From Candidatus Poribacteria bacterium (GTDB taxonomy: Bacteria > Poribacteria > WGA-4E > PCPOR2b), in contig OZ242351.1 of NCBI GenBank assembly GCA_965208675.1, positions 640,001 through 704,000 of the forward strand: DNA of 64,000 nt, in the 5' to 3' direction. A program made the translations under genes and the position numbers. The notes under the pieces are model-generated. The model saw only the letters and a program-made list of their open reading frames with translations, made no database searches and was not told the DNA's origin. Positions 4,053 through 49,122 of the stretch are shown piece by piece; position 1 is the stretch's first letter, and each line of letters starts with the position of its first letter.

Positions 4053-4170
4053 CAGTTGCGCTATAATAAACTGCAATTTCTGTAGAGATTCCTAATGACT
4101 GATTAAAACTGGGTACAAACAAAGGTACGAACCGCGCCGTTAAATTAAAGCTTTCAAACTGAAACCTGTG

Positions 4171-4194
4171 AGGGATTGGTGCACCCAACCCTAC
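4171..4194. repeat. REP-like imperfect palindrome ending in CTAC
   Basis: AGGGATTGGTGCACCCAACCCTAC; the reverse complement begins GTAG. Confidence 0.45.
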
Positions 4195-4215
4195 AAATTG
4201 AATGAGGGATCACAC

Positions 4216-4815: not shown

Positions 4816-4844
4816 TTCAGTCTGGCTTAAAGCTGCGGAATCCA

Positions 4845-5792: not shown

Positions 5793-5797
5793 AGAAG

Positions 5798-7692: not shown

Positions 7693-7720
7693 AATCCAAA
7701 CGGCAATCAGACACGCGTTG

Positions 7721-8512
7721 TCACGCGAAAGGCAACTGGATATTTGCCACAAACCGCCTCGTGAAATCGAGGTTCATTTTGGCAGAAGCGAAGGCATCCT
7801 CACCGGTCGGCGTTTCCAGTACGAACCAACCTTCATAATCGATTTCCACAATTGCTTTGCTGACCGCTTCAAAGTCCACTCGTCCCCCGCCCAGAGGCTG
7901 CGAATCCGTATCCTTCATGTGCAGATAGCCAATATGCTCCGCGGTAAGCATTCGGATTTCCCGCGCGGGGTCGTAGCCCGCGCTTACGGCGTTACCCACA
8001 TCGTAACAGAGGGCGACGGCCTCAATATCAACTGCCTCGAGCAGACGAAGTTGCTCCTCACCGCTCAATGTACATTCGAGAGCGAGTGTGACGCCGTATT
8101 GCGCGGCAACCACGCCTGTACGCTTTAGTCCATCCACCAGGCGCGGCGCCGAGGCGTGTTCTGAACTTAGCGTCGCCTCTTCAAAAAAGGGCAATACAAT
8201 TACGTTAGCCTCCAACCGCGGTGCAACGCGCGCCAAATAGTTTACGAAGTTTATTCCTTCACGACGCAGGTCATCATCAGGGTTCAAGAAGGTGCGTGGA
8301 ATCAACGCCTGAGCCGTAAGTGCGGCGGCACTACATCCTGACGAATCAATCAATTCTTGGACTTTTTCGACCCCTTCCTCGCTGAACAGTAGATGGTCTT
8401 GATAGTTATCTCCAATGCGAAACTCCAGTCCGTCAAAACCGAGTTCCGCCGCTTGGGCAAATGTTTCCTGGAAGGGAAGGGGCAACATCACATCACGAAT
8501 ACCGATTTGCAT
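7721..8512 (-). CDS. Sugar phosphate isomerase/epimerase (xylose-isomerase-like TIM barrel)
   Basis: GFDGLE, LALE, YDVGN, HMKD, LGGGRVDF, FVLE metal-binding pattern. Confidence 0.85.
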   Translation of the reverse strand: MQIGIRDVMLPLPFQETFAQAAELGFDGLEFRIGDNYQDHLLFSEEGVEKVQELIDSSGCSAAALTAQALIPRTFLNPDDDLRREGINFVNYLARVAPRLEANVIVLPFFEEATLSSEHASAPRLVDGLKRTGVVAAQYGVTLALECTLSGEEQLRLLEAVDIEAVALCYDVGNAVSAGYDPAREIRMLTAEHIGYLHMKDTDSQPLGGGRVDFEAVSKAIVEIDYEGWFVLETPTGEDAFASAKMNLDFTRRFVANIQLPFA

Positions 8513-17117: not shown

Positions 17118-18875
17118 CTAGGATTCAACAACGGACGCCAACACCTCATTTAACAGCCCTTCGTTCTTCCGCTCCAATGCCAGCAATTCCTCGGCGATTT
17201 CATCAAGAGAACGAAGCGGCGTGTATTTGTAGAAATACCGATTAAAGTTTATTTCGTAGCCAACCTTGTCCTTTTTCCTGTCCAGCCAACTGTCCGGCAG
17301 GTGCGGCTTGACCTCCCGCTGGTAGTAGTCTTCGATGTCCTCACTGAGCGGCACCCGCTCATAGTCTCGCAGCTTAGAATCGGGTTTAGGATTGCCCTTC
17401 TTGTCTCTGACGACCACCTGTTTCTCCTCGCCTTGAATCTTGTTTTTCTCGACCAGCGGCCTCTCAACCGTGACTTTGGTGTAGCCGAAGAAATCGTTCT
17501 CGTAAATCTTGCAGTGTTCGTTCTCCTCAAAATTGGTGTAGAGCGCCGACAAACGACGGATATGGGCGTCAGAGATGAAAACGCTCTTGTCGCCCAAGTT
17601 TCGCTTCATCTTGTCGAAGAAACTCGCTCCGTTAATGAGTTGTATCATGCCGCGCCGTGCATTTGATTTTTGGTTCGTTAAGATCCAGATGTAGGTTGCG
17701 ATACTGGTGTTGAAAAACAGCTTATCGGGCAGCGCAACAATACACTCCAACCAGTCGTTTTCGATAATCCAGCGTCGAATCTCGCTCTCGCCGCTGCCGG
17801 CATCGCCCGTGAATAGCGGAGAACCGTTGAAGACGATGCCGATCCGGCTGCCGCGGAATTCCATCTTGGAAAGCATGTGCTGCAGAAAAAGCAACGCCCC
17901 GTCAGAGGTGCGCGGTGTACCAACAGCGAACCTGCCGCTCGGATTTTCGGCGTCCTCCTTAACTGTCCCCTCCTCGGACTTCCAACTGACGCCGAACGGC
18001 GGATTCGTAATCATATAGTCGAATCGCTGTGCTTGAAATTTGTCAGCCGATAGCGACGATCCGAGTCGGATTGAGTCCGGATCTTCTGCGGTAATCAGCA
18101 TGTCCGATTTGCAGATAGCGTAGGTCTGCGCATTCAGTTCTTGACCGAGCAGGCGAAGTTCGGCTGAGCGGTTGATATGTTCTAGGAAGTATTCCTTGCC
18201 GATGGTTAGCATGCCGCCCGTCCCGCAGCACGGGTCGAAGATGCTGCGGACAACGCCCTGTCCCTGCAGATTCTCGCGGTGTTCCGCGAACAGCAGCGAG
18301 ACGAGCAGCCTTACCACGTCCCGGGGCGTGTAGTGTTCCCCGCTAGTTTCGTTGGACATCTCCGAGAATCGGCGTAGCAGTTCCTCAAATACCTGACCCA
18401 TGATGTGGTTGTCCACTTTGTTGGGGTGCAAATCGACTTCGGTGAATTTGCTGCAGAAGATGAACAACCGATTGTTCCGGTCCAGCCGTTCAATGAACCG
18501 GTCTAGGTTGAAGTTTTCGATGATGTCCCGTACATCCGCACTGAATCCGTTCAGGTAATTCTGGAAGTTATGGCGTATGTTGGCAGGTTCATCTTTCAGC
18601 CGCGCCAGGTCGTATTGGGAGGTGTTGTAGAATTGGGTGCCAGTGGCTTTCAAAATAATCGGCGGCAACCTGTCTTCAGACACCTTGTCCTTGAATTGGT
18701 TGTAGGCGTCGATGGCTCTCTTTTTCCGGTCGCCCTCCTCCAAGATGCAGTCCAACCGCCGCAGCACGAGAAACGGCAGCGTCACATCGCCGTATTCGTG
18801 CGGCTTGAACAACCCGCGCAGCACATCGTCCGCGACATTCCAAACCAGATTAGCGAGTTCTTGATAGTTTGCCAT
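17118..18875 (-). CDS. hsdM: Type I R-M methyltransferase subunit (N6-adenine)
   Basis: WNVADDVLRG, GEHYTPRDV, FDPCCGTGGML, NPPF, LFTGDAGSGES, GYEINFNRYFY. Confidence 0.95.
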   Translation of the reverse strand: MANYQELANLVWNVADDVLRGLFKPHEYGDVTLPFLVLRRLDCILEEGDRKKRAIDAYNQFKDKVSEDRLPPIILKATGTQFYNTSQYDLARLKDEPANIRHNFQNYLNGFSADVRDIIENFNLDRFIERLDRNNRLFIFCSKFTEVDLHPNKVDNHIMGQVFEELLRRFSEMSNETSGEHYTPRDVVRLLVSLLFAEHRENLQGQGVVRSIFDPCCGTGGMLTIGKEYFLEHINRSAELRLLGQELNAQTYAICKSDMLITAEDPDSIRLGSSLSADKFQAQRFDYMITNPPFGVSWKSEEGTVKEDAENPSGRFAVGTPRTSDGALLFLQHMLSKMEFRGSRIGIVFNGSPLFTGDAGSGESEIRRWIIENDWLECIVALPDKLFFNTSIATYIWILTNQKSNARRGMIQLINGASFFDKMKRNLGDKSVFISDAHIRRLSALYTNFEENEHCKIYENDFFGYTKVTVERPLVEKNKIQGEEKQVVVRDKKGNPKPDSKLRDYERVPLSEDIEDYYQREVKPHLPDSWLDRKKDKVGYEINFNRYFYKYTPLRSLDEIAEELLALERKNEGLLNEVLASVVES

Positions 18876-19053: not shown

Positions 19054-20085
19054 ATGATTACACCGTCAATTTATGCCGCATGGAATTGGAAAGAGGCTGA
19101 TTTGCCACGAATCACACAGAAATTTTCAAAGCACGGTCAACGATTGCTGGTCTACGTTGTAGAAAATGTCAGTATGTTCCAGTATATATCGGTATTCATC
19201 TCCGTCGTCATCGGCTTTGGTATACTATATACCATATTCACCCCAATGGGGCACGGCATTGGGGAAAATCTCAAGCCAATTTCTAATGTTACGTTTTTCA
19301 CGGGAATTTACTTTAGCGTCGTCACGATTTCTTCATTAGGCTATGGTCATATGCATCCAATGGGGATATCAAGGGCTTTTGCATGCATAGAGGTCCTATT
19401 TGGTCTTGCAGCAGTTGGCATCATGATTGCGAAATTAACATCGCAACGTCTTTCATACCATGTATCGCGTCTTTTTGGTTCAGACGCTCAAAAACGGCTT
19501 GAAGATTTCGCCGCAAATTTCGACACCTCTACGTTAAATCTTCATGAAATAATGCCGAAACTGATGGCCGCTTACCAGAACGAGCCCCAGCAAATCTCTC
19601 CACCGACCGAGATTAGGAGCGCATTAATTTCAGGTTTCCGTGAATTAATCAGCGCGTTTAAATCAGAATGTGTTAAATTGCATGACTATCTTGCTCGAGA
19701 AACCGAACAGGACAACTATTTCCAAATCGTGCCGGTTGATCCAGTCAAAAGAGTTGGCATCGCTGTGGGTGACGCATTCTTGAAGCTTGGTCAGCTCATC
19801 ACGAGTGTACCATCACAGTCCAGGTTTGAAATTTTCGATGACATCAACAGGCAAATGATATTTGAAGCGCTCAGCTCCCAAAAAAAGGTATGTGACTTAG
19901 TCGAAGAATATGCAACTGACGAAGCAACCCTAAGTAGGTTCCTTCGGGTTATGGAGACTTGTGAGACACTACCAACAAGCTACTTCGCAGTTCCAGAAGA
20001 ATCGCAACCCGACCAATCCTTTCAAGGTACTAATGAACCGCAGGAACCTCCAGAGGTGGACAATCAGCACACAGATTCTCCGTAG
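19054..20085 (+). CDS. Two-TM pore-loop ion channel (Ion_trans_2 type) with unknown helical C-terminal domain
   Basis: TM1, then IYFSVVTISSLGYGHMHP pore loop, then TM2 (ACIEVLFGLAAVGIMIAKL). Confidence 0.85.
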   Translation: MITPSIYAAWNWKEADLPRITQKFSKHGQRLLVYVVENVSMFQYISVFISVVIGFGILYTIFTPMGHGIGENLKPISNVTFFTGIYFSVVTISSLGYGHMHPMGISRAFACIEVLFGLAAVGIMIAKLTSQRLSYHVSRLFGSDAQKRLEDFAANFDTSTLNLHEIMPKLMAAYQNEPQQISPPTEIRSALISGFRELISAFKSECVKLHDYLARETEQDNYFQIVPVDPVKRVGIAVGDAFLKLGQLITSVPSQSRFEIFDDINRQMIFEALSSQKKVCDLVEEYATDEATLSRFLRVMETCETLPTSYFAVPEESQPDQSFQGTNEPQEPPEVDNQHTDSP

Positions 20086-20118: not shown

Positions 20119-20472
20119 ATGCAACTCAATTGGAATAAGTGCCAGGGCAATGTGTGGTGCAAATTAAATGCGGTAAATCTAAACCACGAACATTTCAACA
20201 ATATGAATGGTGTCTATGTAATTTGGCATGGCGGTACAGATCCTAAAGTGGTATACGTTGGTCAGGGAAACATCAGAGAACGACTAACCGCACATAGGAG
20301 CGATAAAAGAATACAGCAGTTTGACTATCTAGATCTATATGTTACTTGGGCCGCGGTACCCAAAGAGAATCGCGGCGCCATCGAATTATACTTGGTTGAT
20401 ACCTGGTCACCAAAAGTCGGCGATCGACAACCAGAAGCAACTCCCATGCAAGTAAATTCGCCATGGTCATAA
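20119..20472 (+). CDS. Small GIY-YIG nuclease-like protein
   Basis: GVYVIW...VVYVGQG, NIRERLTAH Arg helix, downstream Glu (AIELYL); GGGG RBS. Confidence 0.75.
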   Translation: MQLNWNKCQGNVWCKLNAVNLNHEHFNNMNGVYVIWHGGTDPKVVYVGQGNIRERLTAHRSDKRIQQFDYLDLYVTWAAVPKENRGAIELYLVDTWSPKVGDRQPEATPMQVNSPWS

Positions 20473-20583: not shown

Positions 20584-21011
20584 TAGTTGGGTTGAACGGG
20601 CTCGCGAAACCCAACGATCAACTACCCACTCGGCGAAGTATTGTCGGGAATCGGAATTCCCTCCTACAGGAGAAAAGCGGTAGGAGCGATCGCCGTATCG
20701 CGACACACTCCTGTCAATTGATTCACAATAATCGGGAAAAGGATTTCCCTCCCACAGGGTACATGTTCTGCGGCGTTTGTAGGTTGGGTCAAGCCAACGG
20801 TGAAACCCAACGCTTTTCTGTCGCCGAGAGGTTTGAAAAGCGTTGGGTTTCGCTTCACGCATTCAAGACTTGAACTCAATCGGCAAACTATGTGCGTGCT
20901 GCATAGATTACATGTTTCATGAACACCGCTCTACCCAACCTACAAGAGCTCCCAGTCGCCCAATAGTGCAGCTTACACCAGTAGGAGCGATCGCCGATTC
21001 GTGACACACAC
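20584..21011. repeat. REP mosaic (modules C-D-A)
   Basis: Contains TCGGGAATCGGAATTCCCTCCTACA, GTAGGAGCGATCGCCG, ATCGGGAAAAGGATTTCCCTCCCACA, GTAGGTTGGG and the 117-bp module A (20828-20944). Confidence 0.85.
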
Positions 21012-21012
21012 T

Positions 21013-23979
21013 TTACAAACCCGATGGTGCGGACGGATGGCGATAATCCTGATACAGCATATCCTTTAGGTCGGCATTGACCTCCTGCTTCGTCAGCTTG
21101 TTGTAAAGGTCAATTTTGGTACTGACAAATTCCAATAATATATCGTCAAACACTTGATTAAACTTGTATCGTCTGTTACTATCGGTGTTGTCACCCTCAA
21201 ACACCTGTCGGAGTGACTCGTCGGCGCGCACCTTTTGGCGGATAGTCTCAATGTCAACCTTGTCTTCCTCGGTAAAGTCCGTCTGATACGCGTCATTCAA
21301 TGTTTGGATGATGTTCGAGAGTAGGTCGTGTTCCGGGTCATTGGGCGTGGACTCATCGCCGCCGATACCGTTCACCTCGCTATCTCCTGGATCGAGATAC
21401 AGCGCTTGGCTATCATGAATCTTCTGCACGCGGAACGAATCCAAGTCCACGGATGCCAAGACATCGGACACATCTTCGTATTCTCGTTTCGGCAGTTTCT
21501 TGTTTAGACTGCGGCAGAAAACGTAGAGTTTCTCCAACGCCGGGTCGGTGAACGTAATTAACTGAGATATGTATCCGTAACCCCGAATGTAGCTCTGCAG
21601 CGCGGATCGAAAATCCTCACGCGCTTCGCTCTCCAACTCCGACCATCTCTTAACGACGCTGTCCAGAATGGGTTGCAGCCGTTCATTGGGCTGATTTTCG
21701 TCATAGAAAATAAGGCAAAATCCGTCAACCGTATCCAGGTCGAATAGATCGAAATCCTCCAGCCGCCGCTGCAGGTCATAAAGCCGATTCGGGTCGGTCT
21801 CCTCCTCAAGGATTGTCGCCTCATAGTATTGCTGAAACGCGCCCTGAATCTGGTCGGGTTCGTTCACGAAATCGAGCACCAGCGTCTCGGTCTTGCCGGG
21901 CGCGACGCGGTTCAGGCGGCTGAGGCTCTGGACGCATTGCAGCCCGTCCAACCGCTTATCGACGTACATGGTTTGCAGCATCGGCTCATCGAAACCGGTC
22001 AGGAACTTGTTGGATACGATGAGAATCCGATACTCCGGACGCTTGAATGTGTCCGCAATCGAAACGCTCGGCGCCAGGTTGTTCATGCCGTTCTCGGTGT
22101 AATCCCGCCCGATATCCGTGTCGTGTACCGTACCGCTGAACGCGACCAGACAGCCGTAATGCAGGTTCATATCCCGCATCTGGCGGTCAAATTCGGTCTT
22201 GTACCGCACGCAGTGCATGCGGGACGGCGTGATTAGCATCGCCCGCCCCTTCCCTGCAATAGTATTTGCGGTGCGCTCGACGAAGTGCTCTAGGATAATC
22301 CGCGCCTTGGTCTCAATGCTGTGCGGCTGCAGGTCAACGTAAGTCGTTAACATCCTGAGCGTTCGACCCTTCTCATAGGCTTTATCCTCTGGCACGCTCT
22401 TGACCAGTTGAAAGTACCGTTTAAAGGTGGTATAGTTCTGCAGCACGTCGAGCGTGAACCCTTCGCTGATGCTCTGGCGCATCGAATACACGTGGAACGG
22501 GACGAATTTTCCGGCGTCGTTTTTCCGCCCAAACAGCTCCAGGGTCTTGTTCTTGGGAGTGCCGCTGAACCCGAAATACGATATATGGTCCTGCGCCCGG
22601 CGCCGCTCCATCTCCTCGATAATTCGCGCATCCATGTCTGAAACGTCAGGTTGGTCTTCGTCCGATGCCGTGCTCTCGATCCCTTTTGATAGCGAGACTT
22701 TGAGGTTCTTTGCGGCTTCGCCGCTCTGCGAGGAGTGGACTTCGTCAACGATTACGGCGAAGGTCTTGCTCTTGAGTTCCCCGATTGCCTCTGCGATTAC
22801 GCTGAACTTCTGAATCGTCGAGATGATGATGTCTTTACCAGATTCAAGGAACGCCTTGAGCTGTGCCGAGGTTTTGTCAACAGAGTGCACGACGCCGGCG
22901 ACTTGCTCCATCTGCTTAATTGTCGCCTGAAGTTGCCGGTCGAGCACGCGCCGATCGGTCACGACGATGATGGAGTCGAAGATGCGATCGGTGTCCTCGG
23001 GCGAGCGGTACAGATGCGTGAGGAGGTGCGCCAGCCATGCAATCGAGTTCGACTTGCCGCTGCCGGTGGCGTGTTGGATGAGGTAGTTGCGCCCGACGCC
23101 GTCCGCAATGACCGCCTCCTTCAATTTCCGAATTACGTCGAGTTGGTGGTATCGCGGGAAAACCAACACTGAGCGTGGCTTATCTTTGACTTCGCCAAGG
23201 TCAGGGTCGTAGACCTTGTCTGTGACCTTTTGCTCATGAATAAAGTCGCCGATGAGTTCCATCAGGTTATCGGGCTGCAAGATGTCATCCCACAGGTAGG
23301 CGGTCTTGTGCCCGTCCGGGTTCACCGGGTTTTCGATGCCGCGGTTGTACGGAAAGAAGCGCGTGCCGCTGCCCTGTAGGCGCGTCGTCATGGAAACCTT
23401 CTCGTTACCCACCGCGAAGTGAACTAGACAGCGCCGGAATTTGAACAGCGGTTCTCTCGGATCCCGATCGGTGCGGTATTGTTTCTCGGCGTCCGCCACC
23501 ACCTGACCGGTCAGGCTGTTCTTCAGTTCCATGGTCACCAGCGGCAGACCGTTGAGGAACAGCACCATATCCAGCGAACTCTCATTTTTTTGCGAATACT
23601 TCAACTGCCGGATCAGAGAAAACCGGTTCTGCGCGTAGCGCTTCAGAAGGTCGGGGTTCATGCCGCTTGCCGGGCGGAAATAGGTCAGGTCGAAGTAGCA
23701 GCCCCTGTCTTTAACGCCGTTTCGCAGCACATCCAGGACGCCGCGGCGCTCAATCTGTCGACTTATTTCGTCGAGTAGCTTCTCGGGTGTCTCCTTCTGG
23801 TATTGGCGTTCAAGTTTCTCATACGTATTCAGTTGCGTGTCCCGAATAAAATCCAGCATCTCATCGTGAATCAAGCAGAGCCGCTTATTGTAAAAGATGG
23901 GCTGCCGCGAGCGGTAACCTGAGCGATTCAGGTGCGCTTCGATGTGGTCTTCAAAATTTGTCTCGTCATACGTCGGCAC
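21013..23979 (-). CDS. hsdR: Type I restriction endonuclease subunit R
   Basis: DMVLFLNGLPLVTMELKN nuclease motif, QHATGSGKS, DEVHSSQ, SGTPK, TGFDEP, VQSLSRLNR. Confidence 0.95.
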   Translation of the reverse strand: MPTYDETNFEDHIEAHLNRSGYRSRQPIFYNKRLCLIHDEMLDFIRDTQLNTYEKLERQYQKETPEKLLDEISRQIERRGVLDVLRNGVKDRGCYFDLTYFRPASGMNPDLLKRYAQNRFSLIRQLKYSQKNESSLDMVLFLNGLPLVTMELKNSLTGQVVADAEKQYRTDRDPREPLFKFRRCLVHFAVGNEKVSMTTRLQGSGTRFFPYNRGIENPVNPDGHKTAYLWDDILQPDNLMELIGDFIHEQKVTDKVYDPDLGEVKDKPRSVLVFPRYHQLDVIRKLKEAVIADGVGRNYLIQHATGSGKSNSIAWLAHLLTHLYRSPEDTDRIFDSIIVVTDRRVLDRQLQATIKQMEQVAGVVHSVDKTSAQLKAFLESGKDIIISTIQKFSVIAEAIGELKSKTFAVIVDEVHSSQSGEAAKNLKVSLSKGIESTASDEDQPDVSDMDARIIEEMERRRAQDHISYFGFSGTPKNKTLELFGRKNDAGKFVPFHVYSMRQSISEGFTLDVLQNYTTFKRYFQLVKSVPEDKAYEKGRTLRMLTTYVDLQPHSIETKARIILEHFVERTANTIAGKGRAMLITPSRMHCVRYKTEFDRQMRDMNLHYGCLVAFSGTVHDTDIGRDYTENGMNNLAPSVSIADTFKRPEYRILIVSNKFLTGFDEPMLQTMYVDKRLDGLQCVQSLSRLNRVAPGKTETLVLDFVNEPDQIQGAFQQYYEATILEEETDPNRLYDLQRRLEDFDLFDLDTVDGFCLIFYDENQPNERLQPILDSVVKRWSELESEAREDFRSALQSYIRGYGYISQLITFTDPALEKLYVFCRSLNKKLPKREYEDVSDVLASVDLDSFRVQKIHDSQALYLDPGDSEVNGIGGDESTPNDPEHDLLSNIIQTLNDAYQTDFTEEDKVDIETIRQKVRADESLRQVFEGDNTDSNRRYKFNQVFDDILLEFVSTKIDLYNKLTKQEVNADLKDMLYQDYRHPSAPSGL

Positions 23980-23982
23980 GGT

Positions 23983-25299
23983 CTACACCTCGATTCGGAC
24001 ATCTATCTTGCCCGTCACGGCATTTGAGATGAGCGATTGGCGGTACTCTTTGAGGAGTTCAATGCTCCGTTGCTCTTCGGATATGAGTTTGTCAATCTGT
24101 GCGGTTTTGCGGTCGAGGTAGTCGGCGATTTTGGCCTGTTCACTTAGTGGTGGCAGGAGGATAGGTAAATTCTCTATGGCGGATTTTCCTAAACTAAATC
24201 TTGTAATACCCGTCGAATTGGATCCAAAATATCGACAAGTCTGATTCGATTGAATGAAACGAAACAAGAACTCTCCGTCAACGTCATTTTCTGGTCTTAT
24301 CACGCTCAAATGATACCCACATACAACATTTGTAAATTCTTCCTGAATAAAGGCTGGAACCCCAATATCATCAGGACTTTCAGAATCCTTCGTGATAACT
24401 ACATCTCCCTTTCTTAGCACTGACCGATTGTACTCATCTTGGCTACAACTCCCTTTCATAAAATTGATGCTCGAGTGGATTTTTTCAGCGTAGTATACAT
24501 CGGTGTAATTGCAAAGATCCACTTGGATTTCATCAGGGTTGACATGTTTATCGACGTAGCTTGCTACGATTTTAGAGGTATGCTTTAGCCTTTTTGCTCT
24601 CCAATGTTTCGGTGTCTCCCCAATCCACTCCACGCCCGACGGTTTCATTTCCACATTTGGGTCAAGCCCCTTCGTCACCGCCTGATTTATCAGTGTAGTT
24701 CGCTGTTCCTGCAGCAACGCTATCTTCCGCTCTTTGACGCGGATTAGCTCGTCAATCTGCCCAGTCTTGCGGTCGAGGAAGGCGGCGATTTGGATTTGTT
24801 CAGGAAGCGGTGGCGTCGGTAGTTTCAGGGCTTTGAATTGGATGAAATTTAGGGCTTCACGAATTTCCATCAATCCTGACGATATTTGAATTAGACTTTT
24901 TTGGAAGGGTCTAATTTTGAATACGTAATCAAAATAACTCATATCAATATCAGTTCTTTTTGGGGCAAGAACAATATAAATGCCGGACAAAGCCCCAAAT
25001 TGGTCTGACCTTCCTACTGACCCAATGGTGACATTCATATTGTTTACAACAATGTCGCCGGCATGAACAAGTTGATAGTTTTCAATGTTATCGGAAACCT
25101 TGTTACCGATATTTCCTTTATCTTCATAGCGAATGACCCCGCGGTCTTTTAGGACAGACAAGATGTTGTCACTAACGATGTTAGTGTTTTTTTCTCTTCT
25201 CCGAAAAAAAAGAGAGTCAATGCGGCTTAATCCCCAATCGCCAGGTATCATTCCAATCCACTCTATTCTACTCTCTTTGTGTGCCATGTAACACTTCAT
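23983..25299 (-). CDS. hsdS: Type I R-M specificity subunit
   Basis: Two TRDs with conserved EWIG(M/E)xP, PPLxEQxxIAxxLDRKT repeats and AVTKGLDP / AVTGKIDVR. Confidence 0.95.
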   Translation of the reverse strand: MKCYMAHKESRIEWIGMIPGDWGLSRIDSLFFRRREKNTNIVSDNILSVLKDRGVIRYEDKGNIGNKVSDNIENYQLVHAGDIVVNNMNVTIGSVGRSDQFGALSGIYIVLAPKRTDIDMSYFDYVFKIRPFQKSLIQISSGLMEIREALNFIQFKALKLPTPPLPEQIQIAAFLDRKTGQIDELIRVKERKIALLQEQRTTLINQAVTKGLDPNVEMKPSGVEWIGETPKHWRAKRLKHTSKIVASYVDKHVNPDEIQVDLCNYTDVYYAEKIHSSINFMKGSCSQDEYNRSVLRKGDVVITKDSESPDDIGVPAFIQEEFTNVVCGYHLSVIRPENDVDGEFLFRFIQSNQTCRYFGSNSTGITRFSLGKSAIENLPILLPPLSEQAKIADYLDRKTAQIDKLISEEQRSIELLKEYRQSLISNAVTGKIDVRIEV

Positions 25300-25340
25300 T
25301 ACTTCATTACCTCAATCTTCCGCCAATGTGTTAATGAGCC

Positions 25341-28300
25341 CTAGTAAGGCATTCTTTCATGGCGCAATTCTTCATCTTCATTTTGCTTGTTCAACCGGTC
25401 GATCAGTTCATCAATCCAGCGCTTTACGTTTTCGTTATCTTCGCCGTCTCTAATCCTACGTAGACTTTTTAGTTTCTCTTCATAGTACGAGTTCTCAGAC
25501 CCATACCAACCCTCTGTGCAATAAACGTAATTCGTGCACAGATTTCTGCAAACCTCCGCCCGTTCGCCGTAACGCACGAGGAACGCACGCGTTAGAGATG
25601 TCGGCCATTCTCCGGCAGAAAAGGTTTTGGGGATAAAGCTGCCAGCCAAAAACGCCGCACGGTCTTGTAGGTCTTCATCAACCCATTCCCAAATTTTTTT
25701 ACGTGGGAACTGTGCAAGTGCACCTTGACTGTCTTCTCCTGATAAAAATCTGCCCTCTCTAAGCCACTGTTCTAAAGGGCCTATTCTTGAATAATCCGTT
25801 CGGTCCTCTAAAATTTTACTGACCTGTTCCCAGACCTCCGAAGGATACTGCGAGGTAATTTTATCTAGCACTTTAAGTGCTTCTTCGTAGAGTCTTTCAA
25901 AAACGGTTCCCTGTTTGCCCAATTGACGCAGCATTGGTTCCAAAAGTTCCAAGCTCTTCTCGGAATTGAGGTGTAGAATCACCTTCCCAATTTCTGCCCA
26001 ATTATACTGCGACGTCGCATCAAACCCGTGTTTATCTGATTCTTCAAACAGGGGAGGATGGCAGAGCAATTGGAATGTCAAATCTAGCGGTAATGTAGAT
26101 TTTCGCTTGGGAAAGATGTAGTAGCGATAGTATAGCTGTAATGCAATTGACGTGGCGGCTTTATTGGAAACATTTAACAAATACTCAATCCATTTCCTGA
26201 AGATATCATCGGTGAGGTTGTTAATAACTGTCGCATGGGTGAAGGGTTTAAAGTCATTTATACCGATGACGTCACGCTGTGCGAGGTCAAGAAGATGCAG
26301 ACCCGCGTGATTCGTCATCCCGGAAAAACAAGTAAGCCGCGGGATTAGTGGACTTAGCGCAGCGTCATGACTAAGTATCTTAAGTTGCCTTTCCCACAAG
26401 TTAGAATCTGATTCAAAAATGGCGCGGAAATAGCCACCTAGAAAACCCACATCCGCACTCTCTTGGGTGTTTCGTTGGGCATCTAGTAACGTTGGAAGTA
26501 AACGAAAACCATCATCCATTTTGCCAAGTTCAAACCCATACCTGTAACCATTCTGCGCTTCCACGGTGACGAGCCAGTATAGTTCAGATTGCAAAAGTGA
26601 AGGCGAATCAACGGCGCGCTGGGCGAGTTCTGCAATGCGAGGTTGTGAATAATCCACGTAATTCTGATTTTCTTCGAGCTTAAGGTCTTCTAGCAGGTCC
26701 ATGCCAACATACCGACGCATCATAGAATGAAAATCTGGAGTAACCAACTCATCCATGAGTTGCTCCCAACGTCCTAGAGTTTCCGCAGGCAATCTTTCAC
26801 CGTGATTGTGCAAGATTGCGTTAACTGTCTTGATGACTTGTTTTTTATTCACGTCCGAGCGTTTTGCTATCAATGCAACCGTTTCCACGATCATCTCAGC
26901 GAGATTTGGAATCCGTGAGAGCCCCGGTGCATGACCGAGCAAGATGTCTACCCCATCTTTACGCTCATCTTCAGACAGATGTTCTAATTGATTAACTAGG
27001 AGTTTCCACACTCGCTTATAGGCGTCCCAAAATTCGCCTTCTGTCTTGGGTAGCCACAGCTTGGGTTTCTCGCTTAACCCCTGATACTCTGGACTTCCGG
27101 TTCTCGAAAAGAAAAAAAATACTAACGCTACATTACATGCCTTCATCGCAAGAGCGCGGTGTTCTTTTAATCCGGATTCAAACGCCTCTTTTAAGACAGG
27201 AAACCGCTCTTCTGGGGGCGCTGCCGTTGGGGCCACGGTACCTTGACCAAGCGAGAATAGATCGGCAAACTTGGTGTCGCCAAGCGTGAGGAGCAACCGC
27301 GCGGCATCCACGAACAGATGGCGCCACACTACAATTTTTTCGAGTGCGGACAGCACGTAAGTTCGTCCCACGAATTTCGAAAAGGCATCTCCACCCCAAG
27401 TCTTAACAGAATTCTGCAGGCATTCTAAGGCGGCGTCTGGATCCGCCTCCGTCAGTGCTAAAAAAAAGTCGCCATCATGATTTGTCTGCAAATCGCCACG
27501 CTTTTGGAAGGGACCGTTTGTACCAAGAAGGTCCTTGACGACTGTGGATGCCACCCCTGACGTGGCAGCATACCGAAACATCTCATAGAACCATTCAACT
27601 AGTTTTGGCGTCAAACCTTGTTTAAATTCCTCAAGGTCAAATCCCCTCCCATAAATGTCCCACCACTCTGTCCATAGTTTGATGTGCAGGGCTTTTGGCG
27701 TGATGGAGAGCGTGAACTTGCCTTGAAGAATTTTGCGTTTCTTAAGGTTATCAACGACTTCCTGAAATATCGTCCAAGTAATTTGCGGATCTGCCTCGTT
27801 AATTTTTCTGGCAACGACTTCAGCTTCTTCGCCAACGGGTGCCTCAAAACCGAATTGCTTAAATAATGCCATGAATCGAAGTACACGTCGGCGTTGTTCT
27901 GTTCTTTCCTGACTTGGATCGTCTACTGAGACGATATAACGTTCCCAGATGTTGATCGTGCTCAGTGGGTTCAAAACATCTTGGGGATAATTTGCCAAAT
28001 TCCATCCTACAACATGTGCAACTCGTGGAGAACCGCTGCATAGCTCAACCCAACGCATATCTGAGGTGTCCGAGGATTGGGTATAGTCGGCAATGATGCT
28101 GCAAATCTGTTCGTCGCTGAGTCGTGGGGGAACATAGGGTGAAATATCTCCGGCAATCTCTTCGTGGTTATTATAAATCACAATTAACTTAATCTTTGCA
28201 CCGCGGTACTTCAGTTTGTTTAAAATCTCGGATCGGCTATGGAGGTTACAATCATCAATCACGACAATCGCGGAAAAGTCGCTTTCGCTGTTGCATAGCT

Positions 28301-29138
28301 CGTCCATCAAAAACTTATCTTGAAGAAATTGGTCCGCCGGGGAGTAAATCACTAGCGGTGCTAAATCTTCAGTCCTTGTAGTTTCCAATACCAGCCTTGT
28401 CTTGCCAATGCCTGGGTGCCCGGACACTAACACAGGATTTGTGTAATCGTCGCGTCGCAAATCGCTCCGAAGATTTTCAATAAATTTATCCTGTGATTCT
28501 CCAAAAATAAAGGGACCTTGCATGTTCGCATCTCGCGACCAACTGTCATGTGTCTGAAATTTTGCGCTATCACGTCCATTTACCCACAACGAAAATGATG
28601 GGAAAGATTTGAGGAAACGGATAAGAATATTCTGAGACCATATGTCAACCTTCGCATTAGGATATCCACACGCTTTGAGGTAGTCCGAGATGAGTTTGAA
28701 GGCTTTTTTCCGATAGGGAGGGACAAGACGGTCGATTCCGGTGCAAACTAAAACGTAAGTACCGCATTCATCAAGGCAGTCCCTGATGCTCTCTCTTAAA
28801 TGTTCTTGCTTCGGGACTTTAGGGCTTCCCTGCTTGAGGAGTTCTTTCCGGATATCCCCGTCTCGCCATGGCTTAAATACTGTTCCTGATCGGATTTGGT
28901 AACCGTTTTTGCCTCGGGAAATTATATCGCTTTCTTGTGCACACGAACTAGCGTCAGCAGTGGCATCAATCCCACCATCAGGGATTTTGGTTTCACTCGG
29001 CACATTAATCTTGCAGGTTCCTGGTCCCAGCCTGCGTGCTTCCGCCCAAAGCAATCTCTTAAAAAATTCAACGGCCGTGTCCTCAGTTAGCAAGTCAAGA
29101 TGCTCTTTTTTTACAGTGAAAATATTCTCAAAGTCCAT
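25341..29138 (-). CDS. STAND-type NTPase with N-terminal restriction-endonuclease-like domain (Avs-like defence protein)
   Basis: PDGGIDA...YQIRS N-terminal motif, Walker A GHPGIGKT, Walker B VVIDDC, GSPRVA (GxP), long helical C-terminus. Confidence 0.75.
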   Translation of the reverse strand: MDFENIFTVKKEHLDLLTEDTAVEFFKRLLWAEARRLGPGTCKINVPSETKIPDGGIDATADASSCAQESDIISRGKNGYQIRSGTVFKPWRDGDIRKELLKQGSPKVPKQEHLRESIRDCLDECGTYVLVCTGIDRLVPPYRKKAFKLISDYLKACGYPNAKVDIWSQNILIRFLKSFPSFSLWVNGRDSAKFQTHDSWSRDANMQGPFIFGESQDKFIENLRSDLRRDDYTNPVLVSGHPGIGKTRLVLETTRTEDLAPLVIYSPADQFLQDKFLMDELCNSESDFSAIVVIDDCNLHSRSEILNKLKYRGAKIKLIVIYNNHEEIAGDISPYVPPRLSDEQICSIIADYTQSSDTSDMRWVELCSGSPRVAHVVGWNLANYPQDVLNPLSTINIWERYIVSVDDPSQERTEQRRRVLRFMALFKQFGFEAPVGEEAEVVARKINEADPQITWTIFQEVVDNLKKRKILQGKFTLSITPKALHIKLWTEWWDIYGRGFDLEEFKQGLTPKLVEWFYEMFRYAATSGVASTVVKDLLGTNGPFQKRGDLQTNHDGDFFLALTEADPDAALECLQNSVKTWGGDAFSKFVGRTYVLSALEKIVVWRHLFVDAARLLLTLGDTKFADLFSLGQGTVAPTAAPPEERFPVLKEAFESGLKEHRALAMKACNVALVFFFFSRTGSPEYQGLSEKPKLWLPKTEGEFWDAYKRVWKLLVNQLEHLSEDERKDGVDILLGHAPGLSRIPNLAEMIVETVALIAKRSDVNKKQVIKTVNAILHNHGERLPAETLGRWEQLMDELVTPDFHSMMRRYVGMDLLEDLKLEENQNYVDYSQPRIAELAQRAVDSPSLLQSELYWLVTVEAQNGYRYGFELGKMDDGFRLLPTLLDAQRNTQESADVGFLGGYFRAIFESDSNLWERQLKILSHDAALSPLIPRLTCFSGMTNHAGLHLLDLAQRDVIGINDFKPFTHATVINNLTDDIFRKWIEYLLNVSNKAATSIALQLYYRYYIFPKRKSTLPLDLTFQLLCHPPLFEESDKHGFDATSQYNWAEIGKVILHLNSEKSLELLEPMLRQLGKQGTVFERLYEEALKVLDKITSQYPSEVWEQVSKILEDRTDYSRIGPLEQWLREGRFLSGEDSQGALAQFPRKKIWEWVDEDLQDRAAFLAGSFIPKTFSAGEWPTSLTRAFLVRYGERAEVCRNLCTNYVYCTEGWYGSENSYYEEKLKSLRRIRDGEDNENVKRWIDELIDRLNKQNEDEELRHERMPY

Positions 29139-29236
29139 CGCTTCTCTCGCATTGATTAACGGTCATCACCTAATGTTCTGTCAATCCATTCTCTTTATAA
29201 TCAAAATTACACCGCACTCGCTTAGCCTCTGTTCAA

Positions 29237-29737
29237 TCACCCATCGTAAAACCGTTGAATGTCATCTTCACAAATAAACTCAACCGTAACCCCGTGACGA
29301 CTGAGCACGTCGCGGAAATCCCGCCAATGGCTATCGGTCGCTTGCAAAATCGGCGGCTTGTTTGGATGGGCGAGTGCAACTGCGACAAATTTCCGATCTT
29401 TTGAATGAAAACCATTCAGCGCTTTATCGAGCGGAAACTCTTCAAATTCATTTTCTAAACCGTTCACAGTCGTGATCGAAACTAAGTCGCATCGTTTATC
29501 CTTGTTCATCAAGACCCAGCGAAGAAACCTATCGCCTGTACCCGGCTTACCACTAGAGCGGAGATTATCCATATATTCGGCGAGAATTATCCATCTATCA
29601 TCAAGAACCAATGTCTCCTCGCCGCGCATAATTTTTTCAAGCTTACCGATACAGGTGTTGACGCAATTCGGAGTAGCTTGAGGTGACTCCTCTCGACCAT
29701 TGGCGACCTTCGCAACGTTTGTATCCACAACAACCAT
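29237..29737 (-). CDS. PIN-domain protein (putative RNase toxin)
   Basis: VVVDTNV, ILAEY, KDRKFVAVA, ATDS acidic PIN pattern. Confidence 0.75.
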   Translation of the reverse strand: MVVVDTNVAKVANGREESPQATPNCVNTCIGKLEKIMRGEETLVLDDRWIILAEYMDNLRSSGKPGTGDRFLRWVLMNKDKRCDLVSITTVNGLENEFEEFPLDKALNGFHSKDRKFVAVALAHPNKPPILQATDSHWRDFRDVLSRHGVTVEFICEDDIQRFYDG

Positions 29738-31047
29738 TATTCCATCACTTTCCGCCGGTTCATTTCAGCTTTAGTCTTTTCCACTAGGTCGCCCATATCA
29801 TCGCCAAAGAAGTTTTGGGGCCAATTTCGGATGTTGCCGTATTCGTCCATATTGAGGCGTTCAATTTCGGATTTGCCATCGTTGTTTTGGCAGGAATAGA
29901 GTTCCGTGTCATTCGTCGAAAGCTGCTCCTCGGCGATGCGGCGCGTTAGGCGGTGCAGCAGATGCTCGCTGTGGCTTTCAAGGATTATCTGGACGTTTCG
30001 ATTCATCACGACATCAATCAAGACATCCGCGAGTTCTGATTGCGCTTTTGGATGTAGATGGGCTTCAGGTTGTTCAAGGATAAGTATTGAGCCTTCAGGA
30101 GCATAGTAGCATAGAACCAACACTGGCAGGACCTGGGAAACGCCAATACCGACATCTGAAAGTTTGACTTCGAGACTACCATTGTATTCTGTGACATGGA
30201 ATTCGTAGCTCTGTTCTCTTCCTGGAACCGGGTCAAGTCGATAGGAGTCAATCAATTCCAGTCGTTTTACCCATTTCTGTATCTGTTCGTCAACTGAGAG
30301 TCGCCTAACTCGCGCTGAAAGCAGTGCGGCAACCATCTTTTCCCCATGCTGACCAACGCCTTTTGGGTGGTCGCCTTCCCAGATGTAATGGTGGCGGGGC
30401 TGTTCGCGGAGCGGACCTAGGTAGTGGATTTTGGAGAATAGAGATTCGAAAGCCCTCTGTAGAAGCAAGAAACTGTTGAGCCCTGGTCCTGAATCATGTA
30501 CCCCATAGCACCGAAACGGATTTGCGTCTATCGACTCCTGTGAAAAGACCAGCAAACCGGTCTTAACCAGAAAATCTGGAAATCTGAATCGGTGCCCTTG
30601 TGCCTTCCTCTCTAAAACCCAATTCTGTGCGTTAGCGGTATAACAAAAGCCGTTCAAATCTGTGTGCTGATCGTCTTGCTCAACGGACGTTGAGAAGGTA
30701 AGCGAGTCGGTTGATATCTCTGCAGATACTACTCTAATATCCATAGCCCTAGGAAGGCTCCACGATACCAACATGTCTAGCTTTGAATCCTCGTTGTGCC
30801 CGTGGATAATGTCATCGAATTCGCCGAGATTAACCAGTGACTTCGTGTCGTTCCCATCACCAAAGTAAAGCGGTTCATTCCAATCGGGTGATGGATGCTC
30901 TACGGTTTGCTTGAGCATGAGCAGGACTTGCAAGATACTAGATTTGCCGGAGCTATTCGCGCCGAAGAATCCAGTCAAGGGTGCGAAACGCAGCAAACCC
31001 GTATCTTGCCATGACTTGAAGTTTTGGGCTTTGAGTTCGGTAATCAT
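29737..31047 (-). CDS. ABC/AAA ATPase with C-terminal DUF3696-like domain
   Basis: NFKSW, Walker A GANSSGKSS, YLGPLR, VGIGVSQVLP, LEQPEAHLHP, ESHSEH, DEYGNIRNWPQNFF. Confidence 0.88.
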   Translation of the reverse strand: MITELKAQNFKSWQDTGLLRFAPLTGFFGANSSGKSSILQVLLMLKQTVEHPSPDWNEPLYFGDGNDTKSLVNLGEFDDIIHGHNEDSKLDMLVSWSLPRAMDIRVVSAEISTDSLTFSTSVEQDDQHTDLNGFCYTANAQNWVLERKAQGHRFRFPDFLVKTGLLVFSQESIDANPFRCYGVHDSGPGLNSFLLLQRAFESLFSKIHYLGPLREQPRHHYIWEGDHPKGVGQHGEKMVAALLSARVRRLSVDEQIQKWVKRLELIDSYRLDPVPGREQSYEFHVTEYNGSLEVKLSDVGIGVSQVLPVLVLCYYAPEGSILILEQPEAHLHPKAQSELADVLIDVVMNRNVQIILESHSEHLLHRLTRRIAEEQLSTNDTELYSCQNNDGKSEIERLNMDEYGNIRNWPQNFFGDDMGDLVEKTKAEMNRRKVME

Positions 31048-31124
31048 AACTTTTCCGCTCTTTCACAAAGAGATTGAAACATAAAATTTAACATGCGCCG
31101 ATGATGAAGCGCTGGGGTTCGCAT

Positions 31125-31245
31125 TCAACCTCCCCTAGCCCCTCCTTGGTAAGGAGGGGAATAAAACTGAAAAATTGATTGCCGGCAAGGCATCGGAGGC
31201 TATCGCGCTCTATAGTCGGTCATTAAACGGTCAACCCAACCTACG
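31125..31245. repeat. REP-like remnants
   Basis: CAACCTCCCCTAGCCCCTCCTTGGTAAGGAGGGGAATAAAA and CAACCCAACCTAC. Confidence 0.75.
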
Positions 31246-31260
31246 CGCTGCAATTGCTTG

Positions 31261-31662
31261 TTAGGTCAGCTTGAAGGCGCGCTCGAGTGCTAGCAAAGAA
31301 TCAACCCTGCTTAACGCCTCATTCATGGACTGTAGTTTCATGGTGGTCATCCCAGCGAAGGCAAGGAATGCACCGTATTTTACCGAGATGCCAACCTTGG
31401 TTGTCGATTCACCTGCTGATTCAAAATCGTAGATTATTGTCCAACCCTTGTGGCGAATACGCGTGACGGCTTCTACTGCAGGTTCTTGAATCACGACTCT
31501 GTGGTTTTCATTCTCCTCCAGAATTGCTCCAGAATATCCCCAGCCTGAATGAAGGTTGTTGTAGGCAGCTCGGAATTTGGGATTCGATATTGATTCTTTT
31601 ACGTAAGAATAGCAAACTTCAACCGGCACCTCAACATCAACCGAAACAAACGTCCTACCCAT
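31261..31662 (-). CDS. Small SRPBCC/START-fold-like protein
   Basis: VSVDVEVPVEVCYSY...YDFESAGESTTKVGISVKY pattern; GGAGG RBS before ATG 31662. Confidence 0.5.
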   Translation of the reverse strand: MGRTFVSVDVEVPVEVCYSYVKESISNPKFRAAYNNLHSGWGYSGAILEENENHRVVIQEPAVEAVTRIRHKGWTIIYDFESAGESTTKVGISVKYGAFLAFAGMTTMKLQSMNEALSRVDSLLALERAFKLT

Positions 31663-31767
31663 TTGAACCTCCATCACTTCAGAATTTAGGGTTATAATTT
31701 GATCGTTTGCGAGGAAAACCTTGGTTTTTCACCGCGCCGAGAATAGTATGCTGGTTTTCGATGCTAC

Positions 31768-32325
31768 AACCTCCCCTAGCCCCTCCTTGGTAAGGAGGGG
31801 GATAAAAACAAAAGAACTTCCCACAACGTACAACGTAGTCTGGAAGTCCAGAGGTTTGAAAAGCGTTGGGTTTCGCTTCACGCATACAAGTATTAGCTTG
31901 AATCGGCAGACTATAATCATGCTGCACAGTTTACATTTTGCATGAAACCCGCTCTACCCAACCTACAAAATCACAAAAACTATCGCCTTCCCTAATCGGT
32001 CAGTTGATCCTCCTTGGTAAGGAGGGCATTAAGAACAAGAAAATCCTCCGCCTTGCGAAGGAGGAGCGAGACTCAATGACCAACTGCCCGCGAGGTCAAA
32101 AATTGTCGGGAATTGGAATTCCCTCCTACAGGCGTAAGGCGGTAGGAGCGACTTCCGAATTGTTACGCATTCGGGTCATGCGGTTATTGGATAATCGGGA
32201 AAGGGATTTCCCTCCCACAGGGTTCATATTTTGCGGCTTTTGTAGGTTGGATAGAGCCTACGCCGAAACCCAACCTACGACCTTCCCTAGCCCGTCCTTG
32301 GTTAGGAGGGCGACAAGAGGGGAAT
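31768..32325. repeat. REP mosaic (P-A-B-C-D-P)
   Basis: Module A 31851-31967, B AACTATCGCCTTCCCTAATCGGTCAGTTGATCCTCCTTGGTAAGGAGGG, then modules C and D as in other clusters. Confidence 0.85.
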
Positions 32326-32349
32326 GTGGCGTCACGGCAAAGCATCTCA

Positions 32350-32378
32350 ATTATAACACAATTTGCTTCCGTTGACAA
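32350..32378 (-). promoter_or_regulatory. Putative sigma70 promoter facing the defence operon (TTGTCA-17-TATAAT, extended -10)
   Basis: Minus strand TTGTCA acggaagcaaattg TGt TATAAT. Confidence 0.6.
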
Positions 32379-32495
32379 AGCCTTGAGGTGTAGGTCAAAC
32401 TTCGCCTTAAGGTGTTGCACAAACATGACTTGTATGCCTCTCATACCAAAAATGAAATTCAGATGCAATTGCCCTGAAGGTGATTGCTTAAAAAC

Positions 32496-32524
32496 TTGCC
32501 TTTTTTTCGCGATCGTGATATAAT
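32496..32524 (+). promoter_or_regulatory. Putative sigma70 promoter (TTGCCT-17-TATAAT, extended -10)
   Basis: TTGCCT ttttttcgcgatcg TGa TATAAT. Confidence 0.65.
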
Positions 32525-32530
32525 CCCGGT

Positions 32531-32684
32531 AATTCCAATCAGAAAGTGAGTTCAGAAATTGTTCAATCAACTAAAACCAAGGGCGGCGTGAATGACAGCT
32601 AGCTTTGGTTAGATCTACCAAACTTCCTTCCATTCCTTCCTGCCAATCGCCCGCCTGTGAGCAGTGTACCTCACTGCTGTTTTT
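32531..32684 (+). ncRNA. Candidate sRNA or attenuated leader (~155 nt)
   Basis: Promoter, AACCAAGG/CTTTGGTT stem, CU-rich CTTCCTTCCATTCCTTCC, terminator AGCAGTG-TACCT-CACTGCT-GTTTTT. Confidence 0.45.
32660..32684 (+). terminator. Intrinsic terminator
   Basis: AGCAGTG/CACTGCT stem followed by GTTTTT. Confidence 0.6.
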
Positions 32685-32719
32685 CGTGCCTTCGACATTT
32701 TTCAAATAATAACTTCAAC

Positions 32720-33205
32720 CTGTACAAAAACTATCGCCTTCCCTAATCGGTCAGTTGATCCTCCTTGGTAAGGAGGGGGACATAAACTCGGGGACCCCAA
32801 CAACCAACTAACCCCATCGCGCTGTATTGTCGGGAATTGGAATTCCTTCCTACAGGCATAATGCGGTAGGAATGATCTCCGAATCTCGACACGCTAGGTC
32901 AATGGTTGCTCAATAATCGGGAAAGGGATTTCCCTCCCACAAGGTTCATATTCTGCGGTATTTGTAAGTTGGGTAGAGCCAACGCCGAATCCCAACCTAC
33001 ACAATTACAAAGACTATCGCCTTCCCTAATCGGTCAGTTGATCCTCCTTGGTAAGGAGGGGAATAAGAGCAAAAAAATCCTCCCCCTTGCCAAGGGGGAG
33101 TTAGTGGGGGTTAGAGTTTTCCGAATTAACCTCCCCTAGCCCCTCCTTAGTAAGGAGGTGAATAAGGACAAAAAAATCCTTTCATTTGACAAGGGGGAGT
33201 TTGAG
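32720..33205. repeat. REP mosaic (B-C-D-B-P-P)
   Basis: Two module B copies (~32727, ~33010), C, D and CCTCC(C/T)CCTT-n-AAGG(G/A)GG palindromes. Confidence 0.85.
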
Positions 33206-48838: not shown

Positions 48839-49122
48839 CCTCAATCCTCCAAAACAAATGTTACATTTCTACATTACACTTCATTTTTTGACTTCGCGAA
48901 AATTTTCTATTTGTATCTTTCCTTTGAAAATTGTATTACGAAACTGTGTCCAATCCTACATACATAAGTATAACATAGATGAAGCGGAGATTAAAACAAA
49001 GAGTATGAGAGATTGAAAATGCGGAATTGGTGAAACAATATGGCGGCGTAATCAAGGAATTTTGATGAATCCTTTTATTTACTTTTCCGAATTCTTTTAT
49101 GCTTTTAAGTTTCTATTTTCTA

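Follow-up and report, generated by a model that had tools for sequence, protein, structure and literature searches.

A predicted HEC-03 gene pair, encoding an ABC ATPase and a PIN protein, that precedes type I restriction-modification genes in Candidatus Poribacteria

Identification of the gene pair

I analysed a 64,000-nucleotide stretch of a Candidatus Poribacteria chromosome (GenBank assembly GCA_965208675.1, contig OZ242351.1, positions 640,001 to 704,000), hereafter referred to as the window, and in particular two adjacent minus-strand genes that encode an ATP-binding cassette (ABC) ATPase and a small protein with a predicted PIN fold. Profile matches place this pair in HEC-03 (Hma-embedded candidate 03), a system consisting of an ABC ATPase and a PIN protein (Payne, Hughes, Fineran & Jackson, bioRxiv 10.1101/2024.01.29.577857, cited here and below from the accessible part of its text). 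Taken jointly, and with the mechanism proposed below included, it is very probable that the pair is a two-gene HEC-03 anti-phage system, heading a row of type I restriction-modification (R-M) genes on the chromosome of this sponge symbiont. The features of the pair, all on the minus strand, are as follows (ORF, open reading frame).

29737..31047, minus: predicted HEC-03 ABC ATPase, 436 residues, NsnB-like, with a C-terminal DUF3696 helix (ORF; Pfam; PADLOC)
29237..29737, minus: predicted HEC-03 PIN protein, 166 residues, VapC-like fold, putative effector nuclease (PADLOC; AlphaFold2; VIA structure search)
29737..29741, minus: TAATG stop/start overlap, translational coupling (DNA read)
30937..30963, minus: Walker A GANSSGKSS, ATPase residues 29–37 (translation)
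30448..30750, minus: hypervariable ATPase insert, residues ∼100–200, candidate trigger-sensing region (residue variability, 74 sequences)
30064..30087, minus: Walker B ILILEQPE, ATPase residues 321–328, with Glu-Gln instead of Asp-Glu (translation)
29962..29985, minus: H-loop ILESHSEH, ATPase residues 355–362 (translation)
29782..29919, minus: DUF3696 C-terminal segment, ATPase residues 377–422 (Pfam PF12476, 6.3e-09)

The TAA stop of the ATPase gene and the ATG start of the PIN gene have one base in common (...GTG ATG GAA TAA TGG...), and the small protein begins with MVVVDTNV. The ATPase matches the Pfam families AAA_15 (9.5e-26), AAA_21 (1.4e-24) and DUF3696 (6.3e-09), and its translation also contains a Q-loop-like YLGPLREQP and a signature-like LSDVGIGVSQ. 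A preliminary description of this DNA had listed the ATPase motifs, the TAA/ATG overlap and a 166-residue DTNV protein at 29737, and all of these are present in the ORFs, the translations and the DNA.

Both proteins match PADLOC models of HEC-03 over nearly their whole length. The ATPase matches PDLC04148 ('HEC-03B') at 2e-113 and 377.8 bits, with residues 1–432 aligned to positions 1–452 of the 458-position profile, and this is the top of its 124 PADLOC matches; the runner-up models are NsnB (2e-66, 223 bits), PDC-M55A (9.9e-57) and AriA (1.8e-27, partial and in the core). For the small protein, PDLC04147 ('HEC-03A') is the sole PADLOC match (4.9e-28, residues 2–159 on positions 3–154 of 159). 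The PADLOC naming is reversed relative to the preprint, where HEC-03A is the ATPase and HEC-03B the PIN protein. Together with the two profile matches, the same-strand adjacent cassette and the VapC-like PIN with its conserved acids are the features found here that assign the pair, by sequence and predicted fold, to HEC-03. Chance falls far short of explaining the ORFs, the matches to the models or the conservation described below.

In E. coli MG1655 deltaRM, at least two phages plaqued less well in the presence of the tested HEC-03 homologue, and both genes were needed for protection; the system was toxic with isopropyl β-D-thiogalactopyranoside (IPTG), such that assays were run without it "due to apparent toxicity" (Payne et al., 10.1101/2024.01.29.577857). 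In the same source, HEC-03 was discovered inside Hma systems, and its ATPase is unrelated to VapB. The proposal that an ABC ATPase and a PIN nuclease form a defence module here is supported by the PADLOC matches and the published protection. The accompanying suggestion, that no characterised system is known to have this exact pairing, fails, since both proteins match full-length the models of a system that had been named and assayed experimentally before.

Conservation of the pair in related genomes

Loci with PIN relatives were scanned in one genome per species, giving 432 loci, of which the best 79 were analysed. These belong mostly to Candidatus Poribacteria, with a few from Sedimentisphaerales, Pirellulales and Anaerolineae. 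In 78 of the 79 loci the gene immediately upstream of PIN codes for an ATPase homologue, the exception (L017) being one where the contig ends 199 bp before the PIN gene, so that the pairing is obligate and its conservation, raised in the preliminary description as something to check, is confirmed. The distance between stop and start is −4 in 59 of the 78 loci and −1 in 15, and the two genes overlap in 74.

In one locus (L014:6498-8492), the ATPase and the PIN protein are encoded in a single ORF of 665 residues with no stop between them (...RRRKVMASMNVIIDTNV...). Two database proteins, P0272 and P0273 (415 and 429 residues), similarly combine DUF3696, AAA_15/21 and PIN. These fusions are consistent with a physical partnership of the two proteins, and could also be assembly errors in metagenome-assembled genomes. 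A further database protein, P0259, appears fused, but its linker resembles a frameshift. A complex prediction for the ATPase and PIN proteins, using the ATPase alignment A3 and the PIN alignment A2 described below, gave a score of 0.14 (mark 0.32), a value that bears on binding in neither direction.

Of 151 genomes sampled from the phylum, 112 contain matches to the PIN model (103 among the 131 of high quality), compared to none of 14 controls. Each genome of the phylum sample has at most five matches, and the genome studied here has a single copy. In some genomes of the phylum three PIN genes lie ∼1.85 kb apart, for example at G079:C1:5339061-5343255, and this spacing suggests tandem cassettes.

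Features of the ATPase

I then used an alignment of 75 ATPases (74 ORFs from the related loci, plus that of the window) to map conserved and variable regions. Five motifs, namely Walker A, Q-loop-like, signature-like, Walker B and H-loop, are kept across the alignment; Walker A has the form G-x-N-S/N-S-G-K-T/S, and the H-loop the form E-S/T-H-S, in 75 of 75. The usual Walker B dyad is Asp-Glu (PMC12065111, cited here and below from the accessible part of its text). Here, the motif reads hhhhEQPE in 74 of the 75 sequences and EHPE in one. In ABC ATPases the second residue of the Walker B dyad is the catalytic base, and mutants in which this Glu is changed to Gln are the classic hydrolysis-deficient, ATP-trapped form. 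Because the catalytic Glu is naturally a Gln in this family, I infer that the ATPase is an ATP-bound switch that cycles slowly or not at all.

Conservation is uneven along the protein, with the share of the commonest residue (74 sequences) at 0.28–0.45 for residues ∼100–200, versus 0.8–0.93 in the core and C-terminus. Since the variability is concentrated in this one insert, it is likely a recognition surface. In six loci (L009, L016, L026, L028, L037 and L075, at about 4000–8000 in each), one PIN gene is preceded by two or three ATPase genes in tandem. The tandem copies are of two conserved types, with 72–81% identity within a type and ∼60% between types; the cores of the two types are 83–90% identical, residues 81–200 only 14–37%. 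All seven tandem copies checked (L009, L026, L037) retain Walker A and EQPE. No description of the Glu-Gln Walker B, the hypervariable insert or the tandem ATPase paralogues was found in the accessible parts of either 10.1101/2024.01.29.577857 or PMC12065111.

Structure of the PIN protein

A search with a profile of the small protein identified 1434 representatives at E<=0.001, and the clustered protein database contains 421 relatives of ∼165 residues, of which none has a Pfam domain. Two alignments were used for modeling, one of 28 close relatives (A1) and one of 128 diverse representatives (A2). With the shallow A1, AlphaFold2 gave a model with a mean predicted local distance difference test score (pLDDT) of 54.4, while with A2 the model reached a pLDDT of 97.6 and a predicted template modeling score of 0.91. 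An exhaustive structure search (VIA) with the model returned VapC21 (5sv2_A) first, with a Z-score of 9.6 and a root-mean-square deviation of 3.5 over 125 aligned residues, followed by 7vwo_A (Z 9.5) and 4chg_A (Z 9.3); 14 VapC, FitB and other PIN chains are found at Z 9.5–7.8, and PIN-type proteins occupy rows 1–41 among the 50 matches listed. According to this model, the small protein has a VapC-like PIN fold.

Active PIN nucleases show a D-E-D-D pattern of acidic residues (PMC12065111). Residues D5, E54, D114 and D135 of the small protein, which are invariant in A1 (n=28) and conserved at >=90% in A2 (n=128), fit this pattern. For the ATPase, a profile search against the PDB gave an OLD-family nuclease (6p74, 1.6e-09) as its sole match.

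Genomic context

The pair lies in a row of defence genes, with metabolic genes flanking the row on both sides. The other features of this part of the window, and a further ORF beyond it, are as follows.

29138..25341, minus: 1265-residue P-loop NTPase, neighbouring cargo outside the pair (AAA_16 3e-05, below cut-off; PADLOC)
25299..23983, minus: hsdS (Pfam, PADLOC, NCBIfam)
23979..21013, minus: hsdR (Pfam, PADLOC, NCBIfam)
20119-20472, plus: 117-residue ORF (ORF)
19054-20085, plus: 343-residue Ion_trans_2 channel-like protein (ORF)
18875..17118, minus: hsdM (Pfam, PADLOC, NCBIfam)
45095-48844, minus: 1249-residue ORF, no Pfam match at E<=0.001

The R-M genes of the window are split, with hsdS and hsdR contiguous, and hsdM located 2.1 kb past hsdR, beyond two plus-strand genes. 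The preliminary description placed the pair upstream of hsdS and hsdR on the same strand; this is correct, but skips the 1265-residue gene located between the PIN gene and hsdS. In most relatives hsdM is upstream of the ATPase, unlike in the window, and the commonest order is hsdM, ATPase-PIN, variable cargo, hsdS, hsdR. Homologues of the window's hsd genes are found beside the pair in 44 of the 78 loci, distributed as follows.

hsdM, hsdS and hsdR: 25 loci
hsdM and hsdS: 7 loci
hsdM only: 5 loci
hsdS and hsdR: 4 loci
hsdR only: 2 loci
hsdS only: 1 locus
none: 34 loci

Six of the 34 hsd-free loci are on contigs shorter than 6 kb and hence uninformative, and the hsdR match in L074 has only 25% identity. 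Many of the solo pairs have an isocitrate/isopropylmalate dehydrogenase gene on one side and a NIPSNAP gene on the other.

On a tree of the ATPases (74 sequences, omitting L014 and truncated ATPases), the labels R-M-linked and solo change four times, compared to a mean of 23.5 for shuffled labels, and none of 500 shuffles gave a number as low. This tree separates R-M-linked from solo copies into different clades and, since so few label changes are needed, the linkage is old and stable. This split shows an inherited context, in which kin share labels, and is no proof that the pair and the R-M genes function jointly. The ATPase of the window groups with those of L030 and L001 (support of 98 and 97 in the SH-like approximate likelihood ratio test). 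L030, L001 and L026 have no hsdM upstream of the ATPase, and L026 shares with the window an hsdM placed after hsdR.

The 1265-residue protein matches the PADLOC model PD-Lambda-4_A (5.6e-18) in its N-terminal half only, and its homologues (48–56% identical) lie between the PIN gene and hsdS in six of the 78 loci (L013, L018, L021, L038, L045, L046). It is probably, judging from these comparisons, an independent STAND-type defence gene, and a three-gene system that includes it was rejected, as it stands beside the pair in those six loci only. Look-alikes of ∼1300 residues in the Atlas, some with Mrr_cat and nSTAND_NTPase5, provide a lead only.

In other loci (L006, L044, L011, L012, L030, L016, L004) the slot between PIN and hsdS is occupied by proteins with SLFN_AlbA_2 (1121–1133 residues), HEPN_AbiU2, TIR_2, DUF4365, HATPase_c_3 or DUF4268, and also by several proteins of 805–839 residues with no Pfam match. 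The slot behaves as a variable defence-cargo position adjoining a constant HEC-03.

A scan for promoters and terminators over 25000–31800 gave seven promoter-like and six terminator-like signals, with no excess over shuffled sequences (8.8 and 6.8, respectively). Repeat arrays with units of ∼60–420 bp fill the non-coding stretches to either side of the defence genes (window 31100-33200 and 20605-20950). They recur many times in L001 (4041-6137) and L026, and carry the hairpin-like motif CCCCTCCTTACCAAGGAGGGG.

Proposed mechanism and alternative explanations

A likely mechanism can be derived from PARIS, Septu and the NsnB-NsnC complex as predicted for Menshen. In it, dimers or tetramers of the ATPase would hold the co-translated PIN protein by means of the DUF3696 helices at their C-termini. 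A cue from the phage would be read by the hypervariable insert (residues ∼100–200), altering the ATP-bound state, which is probably long-lived, the Walker B catalytic Glu being naturally a Gln. The PIN protein would then be freed or activated and cut RNA, the likeliest substrates being tRNA or rRNA, which VapC toxins also cleave, and the resulting halt of translation would lead to abortive infection. I infer the physical binding, the trigger, the RNA substrate and the hold-and-release step by analogy with these systems, and hold-and-release of the PIN protein by the ATPase, as suggested in the preliminary description, is a reasonable analogy.

Several points weigh against this reading. At E<=0.01 Pfam gives nothing for the small protein, PIN included, and its sequence profile has no match in the PDB at E<=10; a Foldseek search of the model against the PDB is weak, with the top VapC chains at E 0.047–0.3 and none at E<=0.001. 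The Glu-Gln Walker B could also point to an ATPase that never cycles. The assignment to HEC-03 comes from matches to PADLOC profiles, and not from the sequence of the tested HEC-03; this locus and its Poribacteria homologues are known from genes alone, phage protection being that of the tested homologue.

The preliminary description had proposed that the PIN protein is released when R-M is inhibited, such that the ATPase would sense an inhibited type I enzyme (for example through Ocr- or ArdA-like proteins), as PARIS and PrrC answer anti-restriction. The 44 of 78 loci with R-M homologues beside the pair, usually in a fixed order, speak for such a back-up role, as does the separation of R-M-linked and solo clades, which shows inherited context and not function, and PrrC is found almost exclusively within type I R-M (10.1101/2024.01.29.577857). 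However, the same source reports protection in a deltaRM host and notes that defence genes are often embedded in R-M operons with no known functional coupling. The other 34 loci have no such R-M nearby, many of them lying between dehydrogenase and NIPSNAP genes, and in the window the pair is not placed between hsd genes, the 1265-residue gene separating PIN from hsdS. Because HEC-03 is active in deltaRM cells and many copies have no adjacent R-M, a trigger by R-M inhibition is unsupported, and I consider it improbable. Alternatively, the PIN protein could be a VapC-type toxin and the ATPase merely its antitoxin, forming an addiction module that stabilises the R-M island with no phage sensing. 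The VapC-like fold, the toxicity of induced HEC-03 (10.1101/2024.01.29.577857) and the tight translational coupling of the two genes fit this picture, and the Pfam description of AAA_21 names the type IV toxin-antitoxin toxin AbiEii. Against it, published phage protection requires both genes (10.1101/2024.01.29.577857), a 436-residue ATPase in which the nucleotide-binding motifs are conserved and one insert is hypervariable exceeds what a neutraliser needs, and solo copies at housekeeping sites have no island to stabilise, making an addiction role very improbable.

It is also conceivable that the pair is a remnant of Menshen, that is an NsnB-NsnC core in which the NsnA sensor was lost or had never been present and in which the PIN protein is a non-catalytic adaptor, inert alone or dependent on a third gene such as the 1265-residue neighbour. 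The ATPase does match NsnB (2e-66) and bear a DUF3696, and NsnC begins with a PIN-like domain (PMC12065111). However, the PIN protein studied here keeps the D-E-D-D positions that the inactive PIN of Menshen has lost (PMC12065111), has no C-terminal toxin domain, and has no match to NsnC at E<=0.01. DUF262 is found in none of 47 upstream neighbours other than hsdM and none of 26 downstream neighbours, and the nearest DUF262 gene of this genome lies over 43 kb from the pair, the 1265-residue gene accompanies the pair in six of 78 loci only, and HEC-03 with two genes suffices for defence (10.1101/2024.01.29.577857). A Menshen remnant is accordingly given next to no chance.

The reading of the pair as a HEC-03 anti-phage system can be extended. 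In Poribacteria, HEC-03 may have become a module that nearly every genome carries, in several copies and with sensors that can be exchanged, in which an ATP-bound clamp naturally impaired in hydrolysis (Walker B Glu to Gln) acts on the PIN protein and the insert is the phage-recognition surface; two or three tandem paralogues, alike in their cores and 14–37% identical in the insert, would feed several specificities into one PIN protein, and the old R-M-embedded lineages, including that of the window, may also read anti-restriction proteins. As a single package this proposal is unlikely.

Significance

The pair itself adds little, because the pairing thought to be uncharacterised is HEC-03, already named and tested. 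Its value is mainly comparative, in that the HEC-03 PIN is widespread in a phylum of sponge symbionts, often in several copies, and that about half of the related copies occupy a conserved slot in a type I R-M operon, followed by variable cargo (STAND-like, Schlafen/AlbA_2, HEPN, TIR, DUF4365 and others). How ATPases of the HEC-03/Menshen type sense phage is stated as unsolved in the accessible parts of both 10.1101/2024.01.29.577857 and PMC12065111. The conserved Glu-Gln Walker B and the single hypervariable insert provide handles on this question, through swaps of the insert, a Q326E substitution and mutants of the PIN acids.

Comparison with other systems

The preliminary description had placed the pair among PARIS- and PrrC-like systems, but by the PADLOC and NCBIfam models it is not a member of PARIS, Septu or PrrC. 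It shares with PARIS the combination of an ABC ATPase and a separate nuclease, and the hold-and-release logic of PARIS-type pairs is a plausible analogy (PMC12065111). The AriA models, however, match only the core of the ATPase (within residues 272–364, the match at 1.8e-27 covering 284–363), and the partner has no match to the TOPRIM protein AriB (DUF4435) in PADLOC, its predicted fold being PIN; PARIS was rejected on these grounds. NCBIfam gave nothing above threshold for the ATPase. Septu was rejected with PtuA at 23.5 bits against a cut-off of 500 and a PIN partner instead of the HNH protein PtuB, and MADS with MAD3 reaching 54 bits where the cut-off is 420.

PrrC and RloC each consist of one fused polypeptide, with a different nuclease domain. 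Their ABC ATPases regulate the nuclease domains (PMC12065111), and the pair resembles them in having an ABC ATPase that would control an RNase and in its association with type I R-M. It differs in being encoded by two ORFs with a stop codon between, fused relatives being rare (L014 and the two database proteins), and was rejected as a PrrC/RloC system for this reason. The likeness to VapBC lies in the predicted PIN fold, nearest to VapC toxins (5sv2_A, 7vwo_A, 4chg_A). In contrast to VapBC, the upstream partner is the 436-residue ATPase, with no VapB-type antitoxin gene, and the small protein has neither a Pfam PIN nor a PDB sequence match.

The likeness to Menshen is closer. NsnB of Menshen is an ABC ATPase with a DUF3696 and a degenerate Walker B (Glu-Asn), NsnC has an inactive PIN-like N-terminal domain fused to a toxin, and in AlphaFold 3 models an NsnB dimer grips the PIN-like domain of NsnC with its two DUF3696 helices (PMC12065111). 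The ATPase described here is likewise NsnB-like, with a DUF3696 and a degenerate Walker B (Glu-Gln), and its partner has a PIN-type fold. This PIN protein, however, stands alone, keeps its catalytic acids and has no C-terminal toxin, and the HEC-03 model outscores NsnB for the ATPase (378 vs 223 bits). While the ATPase does match NsnB, membership in Menshen was rejected: no NsnA gene (DUF262/ParB) adjoins the pair, DUF262 being absent from the 47 upstream neighbours other than hsdM and the 26 downstream neighbours in the related loci and nearest in this genome at G000 714156; the PADLOC models of NsnC do not match the 166-residue protein; and the PIN acids are kept. HEC is not mentioned in the accessible part of PMC12065111. 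By analogy, the pair would work like the NsnB-NsnC core with the PIN protein itself as the effector, and HEC-03 and Menshen may form one evolutionary series.

The closest likeness is to HEC-03 itself, in the ABC ATPase and VapC-like PIN with full-length matches to both profiles, in the order of the genes, with that of the ATPase first, and in the attachment to, or embedding in, a larger restriction-type system. The difference is one of setting, as the pair studied here stands beside type I R-M genes in Poribacteria, and not within Hma.

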